From IMG/VR virus record IMGVR_UViG_2695420564_000008: a DNA stretch of 4,595 bases; one strand, written 5' to 3'. This document shows, piece after piece, positions 1,626 through 4,595 of this stretch. Positions within the stretch are counted from its first letter, which is position 1; every line of letters starts with the position of its first letter. The translations under genes were made by a program, and so were the position numbers. Source of the DNA: a virus. Lineage: Duplodnaviria; Heunggongvirae; Uroviricota; Caudoviricetes. The notes under the pieces were generated by a model. It had not been told where the DNA came from, searched no databases, and worked only from the letters and a program-made list of their open reading frames with translations.

Positions 1626-1640
1626 GCCTGAGTATCAGGC
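1626..1640 (+). other. Short palindrome GCCTGA-GTA-TCAGGC followed by a T-rich run (terminator-like or operator-like)
   Basis: Perfect 6-bp inverted repeat with a 3-nt loop, followed by TCTATATTTTT (1641-1651). A wider imperfect inverted repeat CTGATA (1610-1615) / TATCAG (1633-1638) surrounds it. It sits immediately upstream of the TTG at 1650. Confidence 0.3.
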
Positions 1641-1649
1641 TCTATATTT

Positions 1650-2387
1650 TTGAGCACAATAATTCACCAGTATGAAGGCGTACTCTATCAAGCGGGAAAC
1701 TTGCCACCAGACCACGGCAGCAAAGACATAGAAAACTTATTATTTGGTTCTATTATTTCTACTAGAGAAGATACCGAAAGATATCTAAATGAAGGTGTTT
1801 TCGATGGTATGAAGTGCTTAGCAAGTGGATTATGGCACGTTCCTAGTGATTTCATTGCTTCCCTTGCAGGGGTTAAGAGAGCCCCTGACATTCCACTCAT
1901 ATTCTCACCAGCATATATAAAAAAAGAACTAGATATCACATCAGGACGTTACTTTTTCTACGATTTTCGCGAACATGATACCACCGTATCGTCTGTGGAA
2001 GATTTGTATATATCAAGACCGTGGGTTGAATATATAGCTGAAAGCATGGATAAAAATCAGCCAATACCCAGCATACTCCATTTGGGTTCACACGATCTTT
2101 ATGAAAAGGAATTTAAAAACATAGAGCATGGAAATAGAGCACGACATAGCCTGAACCGTGAGAATAGCATTATGGCGTTGATTTATGTGAAACGGCACTA
2201 TCCGGAAGAGTGCAAAGGGAAAAACGGGAAAGAAACCAACGAAGCGTGGGCAAACGCTACGATAGACCACTGGCCACATGTGGGTGGCGATTATGATGAA
2301 CCATCTACAGATTATTTAAAGAAGATCATATCTGACATGGACAGATTGCCGGAAAAACGTACCACGGCAGGAAAGAAGAAATCATGA
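1650..2387 (+). CDS. Hypothetical protein, 245 aa from the TTG start (192 aa if the in-frame ATG at 1809 is used); AT-rich orphan cargo gene
   Basis: Long open frame ending at TGA 2385-2387 in an AT-rich segment, with no overlapping ORF of comparable length on either strand. The start is uncertain: TTG at 1650 has only a weak Shine-Dalgarno-like TCAGG upstream and an in-frame stop lies 6 codons upstream at 1629-1631; the first in-frame ATG is at 1809, preceded by GAAGGTG. No transmembrane segment, signal peptide or catalytic motif recognised by eye. Confidence 0.6.
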   Translation: MSTIIHQYEGVLYQAGNLPPDHGSKDIENLLFGSIISTREDTERYLNEGVFDGMKCLASGLWHVPSDFIASLAGVKRAPDIPLIFSPAYIKKELDITSGRYFFYDFREHDTTVSSVEDLYISRPWVEYIAESMDKNQPIPSILHLGSHDLYEKEFKNIEHGNRARHSLNRENSIMALIYVKRHYPEECKGKNGKETNEAWANATIDHWPHVGGDYDEPSTDYLKKIISDMDRLPEKRTTAGKKKS

Positions 2388-2388
2388 T

Positions 2389-2420
2389 AATAAAATTTAG
2401 TATCGTGACAATAAAATTTA
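2389..2420 (+). promoter_or_regulatory. Tandem direct repeat AATAAAATTTA (2389-2399 and 2410-2420) in the intergenic region upstream of the AlpA-family gene; candidate operator
   Basis: Two identical 11-mers with a 21-bp centre-to-centre spacing (two helical turns), in the 112-bp AT-rich gap between the 245-aa ORF and the AlpA-like gene. TTGAGC (2434-2439) and TTAAAT (2450-2455) hexamers are nearby but with poor spacing, so no promoter is asserted. Confidence 0.3.
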
Positions 2421-2499
2421 CTGTAATTCACTTTTGAGCATGCACACCATTAAATACCCGTAACGAAGCAACAACTATCGCTAAGAGGTTACGGGAAGC

Positions 2500-2703
2500 A
2501 TGAACACCGACACGATTCCTACAAAAGGCTATATCAGACGCTTTCGCCTGGCTGAATTGCTGGGCGTTAGTGTATCCACCATCGACCGTAAAGTAAGAAA
2601 CGGTTCACTACCACGTCCGGTAAAGCTGGGAGAAAAAATAACTGCGTTTGATGCGGTTGAGATTCACAACTGGCTGGCAGAACGCCGCGGGAAGGTGGCC
2701 TGA
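2500..2703 (+). CDS. AlpA-family helix-turn-helix transcriptional regulator (prophage or island regulatory, excisionase-like)
   Basis: 67-aa ORF with ATG at 2500 preceded by AAGAGG/GGGAAG. The translation RLAELLGVSVSTIDRKVRNGSLPRPVKLGEKITAFDAVEIHNWLAERR has the arrangement I associate with AlpA / Phage_AlpA HTH proteins. Its TGA stop (2701-2703) overlaps the next ATG by one base (TGATG). Confidence 0.85.
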   Translation: MNTDTIPTKGYIRRFRLAELLGVSVSTIDRKVRNGSLPRPVKLGEKITAFDAVEIHNWLAERRGKVA

Positions 2704-3134
2704 TGGAAAAGAAAAACCGCCCATTACAGGCGGCTAATTCAGATACTCGCGTATCTGATGTTACGCCCCTTACAAAATCCCTTCAAGCACCAAAGCGCAC
2801 ACCGAAAAAGCATCGTGCCAGAGTCTATATGCTGCGTACTGGTATAGAGGGATGGACAGAAAATGACATTCTTCGCTACTGCCGTCTGTCTTCTGGTCGT
2901 AACTATGCAACAGAGTTAGAACGCCAGCTTGGAATCACTCTGGAGCGTATCGACGAAAAGAATCCTGATGGTATCGGAACACACCTTCGCTACCGTTTCT
3001 CCTGCCGCGGTGATGTTCTGAAAGTGATCACTCATATTAACCATCTTGCGAACATAAATGATCACAACGGACTTTCTCAGCAGGAAATTGCCGACATTCT
3101 GAAACTCTACCCGGACGCGTTTAACGCCGCCTAA
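2703..3134 (+). CDS. Hypothetical protein, 143 aa, basic N-terminal region; translationally coupled to the AlpA-like gene
   Basis: ATG at 2703 overlaps the upstream stop; TAA at 3132-3134. Lys/Arg-rich N-terminus (PKRTPKKHRAR). No family recognised from memory. Confidence 0.7.
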   Translation: MEKKNRPLQAANSDTRVSDVTPLTKSLQAPKRTPKKHRARVYMLRTGIEGWTENDILRYCRLSSGRNYATELERQLGITLERIDEKNPDGIGTHLRYRFSCRGDVLKVITHINHLANINDHNGLSQQEIADILKLYPDAFNAA

Positions 3135-3146
3135 CGGAGACTGAAA

Positions 3147-3980
3147 ATGAACATCGAAAAAAGCAGATTAATTTCTGAGGCCGCCCCTCATCTGAACGCC
3201 TCTCTGGGCACAATTAACGGTAATGAATTTGCCGCAATTGTCCCGGTTATTCCTGGTCACATCGGTGGGCGTGAAACCAATATTGTTAGCGCAAAAGCGT
3301 TACACAAAGCGTTGGGCGTGGGAAAAGACTTCTCTACATGGATCACTGATCGCATCTCTGAATATGACTTCACCATTGGGCACGATTACTCAGTCCATAA
3401 AACAATTTCCCCAAATTTGGGGAAAAGCCCGAATGGCGCGGCTTACAGCAAGATTAAGCAGTCTGGCAGACCCGGCAAAGACTATCTGTTAAGTGTCGGA
3501 ATGGCGAAAGAACTGGCAATGATCGAACGCAATGATCAGGGTCGCGCTATCCGTCGTTATTTCATCCAGTGCGAGGAAGAATTACAGCGTAGCGTGCCTG
3601 AAATCGCCGCCCGCTATCGTCGCCAGCTAAAAGCCCGTATCAGTGCCGCAAACAACTTTAAGCCAATGTGCGATGCGCTGAATATGGCCCGTGCCGAGCA
3701 GGGGAAAACGACGCAGCAACACCACTACACAAACGAGAGCAATATGATTTCTCGTATCGTTCTTGGAGGGCTAACTGCTAAGCAGTGGGCGCGGATAAAT
3801 GGCTATTCTGGCGAACCTCGCGACCATATGAACGCAGAACAGCTTGAGCACCTCTCATATCTCGAAAGCACCAATATCACGTTAATTGATATGGGCATGG
3901 AATATGAGCAGCGCAAAGGAGAACTCACCCGCCTGTCGCAACGCTGGCTCGCCAAGCGTCTGGAGGCGGTCCATGTTTAA
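3147..3980 (+). CDS. Phage antirepressor-like protein with an N-terminal AntA-type domain
   Basis: 277-aa ORF with ATG at 3147 and GGAG 7 nt upstream. The N-terminal region (ALHKALGVGKDFSTWITDRISEYDFTIGHDY ... DYLLSVGMAKELAMIERNDQGRAIRRYFIQCEEEL) matches the signature I recall for AntA/AntB antirepressor N-terminal domains. I cannot assign the C-terminal half. Confidence 0.85.
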   Translation: MNIEKSRLISEAAPHLNASLGTINGNEFAAIVPVIPGHIGGRETNIVSAKALHKALGVGKDFSTWITDRISEYDFTIGHDYSVHKTISPNLGKSPNGAAYSKIKQSGRPGKDYLLSVGMAKELAMIERNDQGRAIRRYFIQCEEELQRSVPEIAARYRRQLKARISAANNFKPMCDALNMARAEQGKTTQQHHYTNESNMISRIVLGGLTAKQWARINGYSGEPRDHMNAEQLEHLSYLESTNITLIDMGMEYEQRKGELTRLSQRWLAKRLEAVHV

Positions 3981-4143
3981 GCCGACAGGAACACCACAAC
4001 CTCAAAAACGCTACAAAGATGCCCACGGAGCACTCGTTACTGTCGAAAGCGTGTCTCACAACCGAGTGACGTTTTATCGCGACGGGTATCAATCGCCATG
4101 CGTACAACCGCTGGCGCGCTTCATGAAGGAGTTCTCTCTTTAG
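3973..4143 (+). CDS. Small hypothetical protein (56 aa), translationally coupled to the antirepressor-like gene
   Basis: ATG at 3973-3975 overlaps the upstream TAA (ATGTTTAA arrangement), with GGAGG 5 nt upstream; TAG at 4141-4143. The ORF track extends this frame back to an ATG at 3886 (85 aa), which would overlap the upstream gene by 95 nt; the coupled start is more parsimonious. No family recognised. Confidence 0.5.
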   Translation: MFKPTGTPQPQKRYKDAHGALVTVESVSHNRVTFYRDGYQSPCVQPLARFMKEFSL

Positions 4144-4240
4144 TCACGCTCACATTACGCGACCAATACTAACAAAACATTAACACTATCTGGCAAAATT
4201 TTGTTCTAAACTTGATCTCAGCGAAATGGCTGCGCCTGAA

Positions 4241-4269
4241 TTGTGATAAAAATCACATTTTTATCACAA
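4241..4269. promoter_or_regulatory. Perfect 12-bp inverted repeat TTGTGATAAAAA-TCACA-TTTTTATCACAA with an embedded CRP-like site TGTGA-N6-TCACA (4242-4257)
   Basis: Directly readable: left arm 4241-4252, spacer TCACA 4253-4257, right arm 4258-4269. The nested TGTGATAAAAATCACA fits the CRP half-site consensus with a 6-bp spacer. It lies about 200 bp upstream of the gapA start. Confidence 0.5.
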
Positions 4270-4285
4270 CTGCCCTTTAAAATTC

Positions 4286-4298
4286 GGGGCGCCGCCCC
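4286..4298. other. GC-rich palindrome GGGGCG-C-CGCCCC (short hairpin or protein-binding site)
   Basis: Near-perfect 13-bp palindrome. On the minus strand it is followed by GAATTTTAAA, giving a weak terminator-like appearance; no T-run follows on the plus strand. Function unclear. Confidence 0.25.
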
Positions 4299-4393
4299 CA
4301 TGTGGTCTCAAGCCCAAAGGAAGAGTGAGGCGAGTCAGTCGCATAATGCTTAGGCACAGGATTGATTTGTCGCAATGATTGACACGATTCCGC

Positions 4394-4421
4394 TTGACGC
4401 TGCGTAAGGTTTTTGTAATTT
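4394..4421 (+). promoter_or_regulatory. Probable gapA proximal promoter: -35 TTGACG (4394-4399), 16-bp spacer, extended -10 TGTAATTT (4414-4421)
   Basis: Hexamers and spacing read directly; a second TTGACA lies at 4379-4384. Consistent with my recollection that gapA has a strong extended -10 promoter, but not verified against the published start site. Confidence 0.55.
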
Positions 4422-4452
4422 TACAGGCAACCTTTTATTCACTAACAAATAG

Positions 4453-4595
<143 letters not shown>

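Follow-up and report, generated by a model that had tools for sequence, protein, structure and literature searches.

A translated gene coupled to alpA

The window analyzed here is a 4,595-nucleotide (nt) stretch of DNA, IMG/VR virus record IMGVR_UViG_2695420564_000008 (Caudoviricetes). An open reading frame (ORF) that starts with ATG and occupies 2703..3134 on its plus strand encodes the 143-amino-acid (aa) protein that is the subject of this study. The protein is WP_000412546.1, which is named 'hypothetical protein' or, in newer records of the Prokaryotic Genome Annotation Pipeline (PGAP), 'PM1773 family protein'. Upstream lies a 67-aa helix-turn-helix (HTH) gene of the AlpA family (2500..2703, plus strand; Pfam Phage_AlpA, E 2.2e-8; HTH_17, E 5.2e-6). 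Downstream lies a 277-aa AntA/B ('antirepressor') gene of the Bro network (3147..3980, plus strand; Pfam AntA, E 1.1e-21; phrog_5817, E 1e-37), which begins 12 nt past the stop codon of the 143-aa gene and is followed by a small ORF assigned to DUF4222 by Pfam. The isoelectric point (pI) of the 143-aa protein is 9.5, and the first-pass annotation of the window, which had described a basic protein between an AlpA-like and an Ant-like gene, was correct in this respect. The positive charge is spread over residues 1-100, with a pI of 10.4 for residues 1-33 and 9.7 for residues 34-100, and residues 101-143 are acidic (pI 5.8).

The junction with the AlpA gene was read directly from the sequence (2692..2705, plus strand). 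The stop codon TGA of the AlpA gene (2701-2703) and the ATG of the 143-aa gene (2703-2705) share one A to form TGATG, and a Shine-Dalgarno-like AAGGTGG is located at 2692-2698, 4 nt before the ATG. In a codon alignment of 60 distinct gene sequences, the amino acids at positions 31-140 were kept while the synonymous sites were near saturation; for example, residue L57 was 100% conserved although its codon entropy reached 2.29 bits. Since constant amino acids and saturated synonymous sites occur together over codons 31-140, the gene is translated and under purifying selection, and the 143-aa ORF is a real coding gene.

A satellite gene with a conserved position

Homology searches found 610 homologues, of which the best 120 were all at least 72% identical, all from Enterobacterales, and named only "hypothetical" or "prophage protein". 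HMMER, applied exhaustively to 1.84 billion cluster representatives, found 92 clusters at 50% identity, the distant members of which are nearly all metagenomic proteins. The family is small and has a conserved core at residues ~29-139. Of 5,426 complete E. coli genomes, 647 (12%) carry the gene. No homologue of the protein was found in 50,697 phage records, and IMG/VR elements, mostly 16-24 kb in size with the gene ~2.6 kb from one end, contain 126 relatives. The gene family is limited to satellites.

To compare gene context, one genome per species was used, which gave 59 loci in as many genome records. These cover Enterobacterales, Orbales (Gilliamella), Aeromonadales (Tolumonas, Oceanisphaera and Zobellella) and one metagenome-assembled genome of Porticoccaceae. 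In all 59 species, an integrase gene, a very variable gene of 150-400 aa, an AlpA/HTH_17 gene of 62-97 aa and the orthologue of the 143-aa gene follow each other in this order on one strand. The ORFs upstream of the orthologues are AlpA or HTH_17 genes of several subfamilies, and a 1-nt stop/start overlap (TAATG or TGATG) was observed in ~45 of the 59 loci irrespective of the AlpA subtype. The tight coupling to the AlpA-like gene proposed in the first-pass annotation is thus seen both in the window and in most of the loci. The downstream gene is of the AntA, Bro-N or Rha type and begins 12-14 nt past the stop codon, and in most of the loci a TOPRIM/DUF927 primase gene is located 1-5 kb downstream. 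In the scheme proposed for Gram-negative phage-inducible chromosomal islands (PICIs), an integration zone (int and AlpA), a Bro zone, a replication zone and a late zone run in one direction (PMC10111431). Most of the 59 loci, as well as the islands of E. coli 042 and E. coli MP1, have this four-zone organization, and the 143-aa gene lies right at the border between the integration zone and the Bro zone.

The closest experimental counterpart is EcCIMP1, a PICI of E. coli MP1, which is excised, circularized and transduced only with the P22-like helper phage Kapi1 (PMC11773190). Its canonical alpA is induced by the helper and is essential for the excision and transfer cycle (PMC11773190). The protein encoded directly after this alpA, WP_000412531.1, is identical to the window protein at 141 of 143 residues (99%), and its gene occupies the same slot before AntA/B, DUF4222, ash, primase, DUF2824 and ejection-protein genes. 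By gene order, WP_000412531.1 is probably EcCIMP1_004; the gene after alpA is neither tested, discussed nor named in the EcCIMP1 study (Pick et al. 2025, PMC11773190). In contrast, the AlpA of EcCIMP1 is only 36% identical to that of the window, and the integrase and the attachment site also differ (tRNA-Thr in EcCIMP1, the yicC side in E. coli 042). Judged by sequence identity and gene order, the window gene is a gene of an EcCIMP1-type AlpA-controlled PICI and has an orthologue in the same slot of an experimentally mobilized PICI, which agrees with its earlier placement in a satellite regulatory operon.

The constant position next to integrase and AlpA raised the question of whether the protein is an accessory excision or integration factor that works with both of them, as a recombination directionality factor or an architectural protein. 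The gene is always found in the block of integrase, variable gene, AlpA-type gene and 143-aa-gene orthologue. This block is kept even in small distant islands, and in the three most distant loci, where no TOPRIM/DUF927 primase was detectable, and relatives of AlpA are known excisionases (PMC10111431). However, the integrase identities fall into classes of ~90%, 60% and 25-30% and the AlpA identities follow them, which indicates that int and AlpA are swapped together as a module while the 143-aa gene stays constant; between the window and EcCIMP1, the AlpA identity is 36% and that of the 143-aa protein is 99%. The identity of the 143-aa protein correlated only weakly with that of the integrase (rho 0.41) and similarly with that of AlpA (rho 0.44), whereas rho was 0.8-0.9 against the primase, AntA/B and other downstream genes, a correlation that may be partly due to host phylogeny. 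Since an integrase-specific partner should co-vary with the integrase, the module exchange disfavors an integrase-specific directionality factor, and we regard a role in excision or integration as quite unlikely. The gene keeps its slot beside alpA more consistently than it keeps its paired integrase or AlpA type.

A predicted winged helix with an almost invariant surface

The first-pass annotation had been unable to assign a family to the protein, and this situation persisted in our searches. Pfam, PHROGs, NCBIfam release 20.0 and PADLOC gave no significant match to the 143-aa protein. The label 'PM1773 family protein' is attached to the identical WP_000412546.1 in some recent RefSeq records; the assignment was not reproduced with NCBIfam release 20.0, and a literature search found no mention of PM1773. 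The Pfam family HTH_91 (PF22324) matched the window protein at 15.3 bits (E 0.017), below its gathering threshold of 27 bits, and gave sub-threshold matches in 5 of 28 family members, with a best E of 2.8e-4. For the MarR families (PF12802 and PF01047), the only signal was MarR_2 at E 0.11 over 20 residues in one of the 28 members, which does not place the protein among them. One further candidate was rejected. Residues 101-141 resembled the head-binding domain of the P22 tailspike (PF09008; E 0.12 in Pfam and 0.64 in the PDB), a match that was tempting given the P22-like 14/7/20/16 genes in the full island. It was seen in one of the 28 members and was gone when the family profile was used, and the region is predicted to be helical and not β-rich, so it was put down to chance.

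The structure of the protein was predicted with AlphaFold2 from a 28-sequence alignment, and the model had a mean predicted local distance difference test (pLDDT) score of 87.5 and a predicted template modeling (pTM) score of 0.74. The N-terminal tail (codons 1-33; 2703..2801, plus strand) is predicted to be disordered, with pLDDT values of 58-72 and no secondary structure, and is basic (pI 10.4), variable and gappy in alignments. It is followed by a predicted winged HTH (codons 35-99; 2805..2999, plus strand; pLDDT 90-97) that consists of helix H1 (35-45), a short strand (51-52), helices H2 (53-59) and H3 (68-76), and a wing of two strands (80-86 and 93-99). Two C-terminal helices, 102-118 and 126-134 (codons 102-134; 3006..3104, plus strand; pLDDT ~97), complete the model and could, by resemblance to PadR and MarR proteins, serve as a dimerization element. 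The order H1-(strand)-H2-H3 with a two-stranded wing, which defines the winged-helix fold, is present in the prediction with a pLDDT above 90 across residues 35-134, and the fold is therefore predicted with confidence.

Structure searches placed the model among winged-helix proteins in general. The best Foldseek matches in the PDB were MepR/MarR, 3r0a and RTP, the replication terminator protein of Bacillus, all with E of at least 0.02 and a template modeling (TM) score of ~0.35 for MepR/MarR, and the best matches in BFVD were phage "HTH domain" proteins with E of at least 7e-3. The best PDB match of the family profile was the wing of the winged-helix regulator 3r0a, with an E of 0.73. Nearly all top structure matches were winged-helix DNA-binding regulators (MepR/MarR, PadR, ArsR and RTP), and these matches are generic. 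The predicted H1-strand-H2-H3-wing arrangement with C-terminal helices is likewise that of the MarR, PadR and ArsR regulators, which gave the best structure matches. Neither the profile nor the structure searches returned a confident match to a housekeeping family.

The family shares the motif G.TEN.IL..C.LSSGRNY..ELER...I.L.R..E.NPDGIG.H.RY, in which G50, N67 and N87 are invariant. The invariant or near-invariant residues are G50, T52, E53, N54, L57, C60, S63-S64-G65-R66-N67-Y68, E73, R82, N87, D89, G90, H94, R96 and Y97, and they map to H2, the start of the recognition helix and the wing. This putative interaction surface is almost invariant from Escherichia to Gilliamella and Zobellella. 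Based on the predicted fold and on residues R66, N67, Y68, R82, H94, R96 and Y97, DNA binding by the protein is plausible. The first-pass annotation had also suggested nucleic-acid binding, on the strength of a Lys/Arg-rich N-terminus. The suggestion itself gains from the predicted winged helix, but the N-terminus was discounted as evidence because the tail is predicted to be disordered, is variable, and has its first ~12 codons constrained at the DNA level by an antisense hairpin (see below). A better conserved basic patch, P34-K35-K36-x-R38-A39, is located immediately N-terminal to helix 1 and may be the one of importance to the protein.

Alternatively, the winged helix might be a protein-binding module that docks on a highly conserved partner from the host or the satellite, for instance RNA polymerase, part of the replisome or the primase of the satellite. 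This is the main rival to a DNA-binding role, although we consider it unlikely. Most of the structure matches are DNA-binding regulators, and the basic arm PKKxRA and the conserved Arg, His and Tyr residues of the wing suit contact with DNA. With respect to the primase in particular, the distant loci L059 and L061 keep the gene where no TOPRIM/DUF927 primase was detectable, and the correlation between the two proteins may reflect just shared host phylogeny.

The conserved surface also bears on the proposal, made in the first-pass annotation, that the protein acts on helper phages. Such a derepression or interference factor would bind a repressor, capsid or terminase protein of the helper. The gene is indeed in an early operon beside the AntA/Bro 'antirepressor' gene, and epsilon, the derepressor of P4, is encoded in a comparable operon. 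No positive evidence for this function was obtained, however: the protein is not similar to any P4 ORF, PHROG or PADLOC model, and when the family profile was compared with all P4 reading frames (including Eta/Kil, epsilon, ORF151 and ORF106), the best E was 2.8, indicating no homology. Known interference factors diversify fast, whereas the surface of this protein is strongly conserved across hosts whose helpers are necessarily different, and a Kapi1-like prophage occurs in only 2 of 21 EcCIMP1-carrying strains, yet the gene is among the better conserved. Since the surface is near-invariant from Escherichia to Gilliamella and Zobellella, a conserved partner fits better than fast-evolving helper proteins, and we assign helper interference a low probability.

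A last alternative is that the protein binds the origin of the satellite replicon or assists its initiator. A winged helix is a typical feature of initiators, the structure matches include RTP, the identity of the protein co-varies with that of the primase, and iterons are found downstream of the primase gene. In the E. coli 042 island (locus L001), the origin (ori; 23332-23444) contains 9-nt iterons in direct and inverted sets that flank an AT-rich stretch, namely three copies of GTTGGTTCA and three of TGAACCAAC. Related elements carry at least 10 iteron sequences, e.g., TGAACCAAC, GAGACAACA, GAACCGAC, ACGGGTTA, AGTGTGTCA and TGGGATAA, which implies that ori specificity is swapped often. However, elements with the same winged-helix core differ in their iterons, as in L004 (GAGACAACA) versus L009 (TGAACCAAC) and L040 (AGTGTGTCA) versus L060 (TGAACCAAC), and in some distant loci no primase was detectable. 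Since the iterons vary while the core is constant, the 143-aa protein cannot set iteron specificity, and a function at the origin appears very improbable.

A probable antisense terminator within the start of the gene

A k-mer screen for sequence common to many loci singled out the start of the ORF. Codons 2-11 (GAA AAG AAA AAC CGC CCA TTA CAG GCG GCT) consist of an A-run followed by a GC-rich hairpin, and the protein accordingly starts with MEKKNRPLQAA. A terminator scan identified an intrinsic-terminator-like hairpin with a T-run within these codons on the minus strand (2705..2735), that is, directed leftward and antisense to the gene. The stem runs from 2735 to 2715 with 9 pairs and is followed by the tail TTTCTTTTCC, so that the element reads as a hairpin plus TTTTTCTTTTCC. 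A minus-strand hairpin with a T-run is located within ~50 nt past the start codon in 53-56 of the 59 loci, whereas the background in these loci is 1.55 such hits per kb per strand.

The sequence of the stem changes between clades while its pairing is preserved. At least eight different stem sequences were observed, including AGCCGCC/GGCGGUU, AGCCACC/GGUGGUU, CCCGC/GCGGG, GCCCGG/CCGGGC, GACGCUCG/CGGGCGUU, AAGCCCUC/GAGGGUUU and a 14-bp stem, GGGGCUUGAACCUG/CGGGUUCAGGCCCU. Of 37 distinct sequences, 35 folded better as the minus than as the plus strand when only the hairpin was considered (-12.8 vs -8.6 kcal/mol, p 2e-7); over a 72-nt region, the count was 39 of 40. The difference arises because the plus strand would have A-C mismatches at several places where the minus strand forms G-U pairs. 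The minus-strand RNAalifold structure had 8 pairs, two of them invariant G-U pairs, with a GC-to-AU double change in 6 sequences, and the hairpin scored z ~-4 against shuffled sequences. When all clades were mixed, MAFFT misaligned the stems and RNAalifold found no consensus. The covariance model R1, built on the terminator, recovered only its own source clades plus weak Serratia-type matches, and it was not used for cross-clade pair counts. Rfam contained no family that matched the element. Judged by its structure and its compensatory changes, the assignment of 2705-2735 on the minus strand as a Rho-independent terminator is well supported.

The codons show the same constraint. Codons 2-25 have very low synonymous diversity despite varying amino acids, which is unique to this part of the ORF, and for R6 one of the six possible codons is used in all sequences. 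The Lys/Arg-rich N-terminus is thus in part the translation of an antisense terminator.

Two further features are located next to the terminator. A second inverted repeat, TCAGATAC tcgc GTATCTGA, could form a hairpin on either strand at 2739..2758, and its pairing is kept between clades (ATCGGA/TCCGAT, AGAATA/TATTCT and ATTGGAG/CTCCAAT). It showed no strand preference (18 vs 15), had a mean z of -2.1 and, like the terminator, had no counterpart in Rfam. A weak candidate σ70 promoter in the antisense direction (2758..2786, minus strand) consists of a -35 element TTGAAG (2786..2781), a 17-nt spacer and a -10 element TAACAT (2763..2758) that overlaps the second inverted repeat. The arrangement of TTGAA[GCT] or TTGTAC, 17 nt and TAA[CT]AT recurs in Enterobacteriaceae-type sequences, with TGnTAGAAT in Morganellaceae, and in a promoter scan the candidate stayed under the thresholds.

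Conservation of the leftward terminator points to a short antisense transcript over the start of the gene, a feature undescribed in AlpA-type PICIs. Such RNAs are known from phages: the sar RNA of P22 and the oop RNA of lambda are short, run antisense to the end of a regulatory gene and carry intrinsic terminators. The present element resembles them in that a leftward terminator is placed early in a gene that an ant-type gene follows closely, and the implied transcript would be short. It has no relation to them in sequence or in Rfam, and its transcript is a predicted one with an uncertain promoter. By analogy, the antisense RNA could restrain translation in the resting island. Another possible function is to insulate alpA and int from antisense transcription. 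Phage P4 offers a second comparison (PMC10111431). There, too, the early operon is headed by an ORF (Eta/CI region) that is coupled to an AlpA homologue, Vis, and has a regulatory RNA within its coding sequence. The P4 CI RNA is encoded on the sense strand and belongs to the Rfam C4 class; the element described here differs in being a terminator on the minus strand, for which Rfam gave no match.

An operator search for conserved k-mers in the 59 loci returned only the gene's own 5' element and a GAGTCCATAAAAAA motif. The motif, (GAGTTTTnn)GAGTCCATAAAAAAGG, was present in ~30 of the 59 loci from Escherichia to Gilliamella (many of L003-L057), with copies in L001 at 16763, 17847 and 23723. It occurs in 2-3 tandem copies at ~24-36 nt spacing in loci such as L013, L040 and L048, usually 1.3-2.3 kb downstream of the 143-aa gene and directly before the isrK/C4 RNA region, often with a GC hairpin after it. 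The window has a degenerate copy within the ant gene (3392-3402). The motif may be bound by a protein or be targeted by an RNA; RNAduplex comparison of the GAGTCCATAAAAAA motif with the C4 and isrK RNAs gave results no better than shuffled controls.

Neighboring features and the make-up of the window

Other features of the loci were recorded alongside the 143-aa gene. The genes downstream of it in L003-L061 share the N-terminal leader MxIEKSRFNSEAAP (window 3147-3190), and the domain behind the leader swaps between AntA, Bro-N and Rha, plainly an instance of Bro-network domain shuffling behind a constant 5' end. Between the integrase gene and alpA (window 1650-2387) lies the slot of the very variable gene of 150-400 aa. 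Its window copy had no match in Pfam, PHROG or PADLOC, several variants share the HTH-like N-terminus LEYCRIDRAAxLLxCxVxDI, and the slot looks like a hotspot for cargo or accessory genes. The region upstream of alpA (window 2388-2430; L001 15752-15791) has two direct copies of a 19-nt repeat with 21-nt spacing, ATCATGATAATAAAATTTA (2381-2399) and ATCGTGACAATAAAATTTA (2402-2420), which could be a binding site for a regulator or an integrase-arm site of the int/alpA module. Within the ant gene, a perfect 8-4-8 palindrome, TTTCCCCAAATTTGGGGAAA (3406-3425), was flagged as terminator-like on the minus strand since TTGTTTTAT follows it on that strand. Over the whole window, Rfam gave only two intron-like matches, both sub-threshold and both within the ant gene; these matches to group II intron domains (3735-3812, plus strand, 26 bits against a gathering score of 40; 3506-3581, minus strand, 21.8 against 65.5) are probably due to chance.

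The window is a mosaic in which island DNA is confined to 1630-4134. This plus-strand fragment of the early operon of an EcCIMP1-type PICI is 100% identical to E. coli 042 (NC_017626, 4199578-4202082) and likewise to several other strains, and both of its ends interrupt a gene. To its left are oppA'-oppB-oppC' (1-1548), with oppC cut at about codon 55 and a best identity to E. coli of 89.8%, and an 81-nt segment (1549-1629) outside both the opp match and the 042 island match. To its right are the promoter or upstream region and the start of gapA (4133-4595, 95.5% identity). The distance from opp to gapA in E. coli K-12 is ~560 kb. The combination of opp, island and gapA may have arisen by natural rearrangement or by misassembly, or the sequence may have been constructed; a 40-nt probe over the right-hand junction had no match in metagenome contigs. 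The integrase gene, primase gene and ori of the element are missing from the window, which therefore holds a part of an element and not one complete with integrase, AlpA, primase/ori and attachment sites.

The complete element in E. coli 042 adjoins yicC. Its genes are, in order, an integrase, a 281-aa hypothetical protein, the AlpA-like protein, the 143-aa protein, AntA/B, DUF4222, ash, six small ORFs and a 918-aa TOPRIM/DUF927 primase, followed by DUF2824 and ejection-protein genes similar to P22 gp7, gp20 and gp16 (P22-like 14/7/20/16). Three RNAs scored above the Rfam gathering score in this island, namely int-alpA RNA at 14826-14892 (60.6 bits), isrK at 17901-17978 (67.1 bits) and a C4/P4-CI-like antisense RNA at 18041-18128 (79.5 bits), and all of them are beyond the limits of the window. 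The isrK and C4 RNAs are located inside the annotated 'ash family' gene, ~2 kb downstream of the 143-aa gene, and point to RNA immunity of the P4/P1 type in the EcCIMP1-type PICI family.

A proposed role at induction

We propose that the 143-aa protein is a satellite-specific winged-helix DNA-binding co-regulator or architectural factor, made together with AlpA at induction and acting on a target common to all of these elements, a reading to which we would give an even chance. According to this model, the helper phage would turn on the alpA promoter, and ribosomes that finish alpA would re-initiate at the overlapping ATG, so that the winged-helix protein would be produced together with AlpA at the start of the lytic program. 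The protein would then contact nucleic acid, in the likeliest case as a dimer on double-stranded DNA, through the recognition helix (SSGRNY-ATELER), the β-hairpin wing (NPDGIG...H.RY) and the flanking basic arm (PKKHRAR). It would serve as a second regulatory or architectural factor with the same target in all elements.

An antisense layer might be added to this proposal. The leftward terminator in the first ~55 nt of the ORF would end a short antisense transcript over the gene start, which, by analogy with P22 sar and lambda oop, may hold translation of the winged-helix gene down until induction. The junction of alpA and the winged-helix gene would then be an RNA-protein switch, in which a constitutive antisense RNA blocks coupled translation at rest and the protein is the second induction regulator. 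This version is speculative, and we put its probability low. If true, it would be a new layer of immunity and induction control in Gram-negative PICIs, distinct from the P4-type C4/CI RNA of the same islands.

In kind, the gene is an ordinary object, a small HTH-type gene in the regulatory operon of a mobile element, and its family is uncharacterized. AlpA-controlled satellites are common in Enterobacterales, mobilize virulence and defense genes, and alter the biology of their helper phages. The start of this gene illustrates that the composition of a protein's N-terminus can mirror an overlapping RNA signal instead of the function of the protein, and the embedded antisense terminator provides a concrete hypothesis for post-transcriptional control of satellite induction. 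Because the gene sits beside alpA, is restricted to satellites and keeps a conserved slot, it is an obvious candidate for knockout in the tractable EcCIMP1/Kapi1 system.

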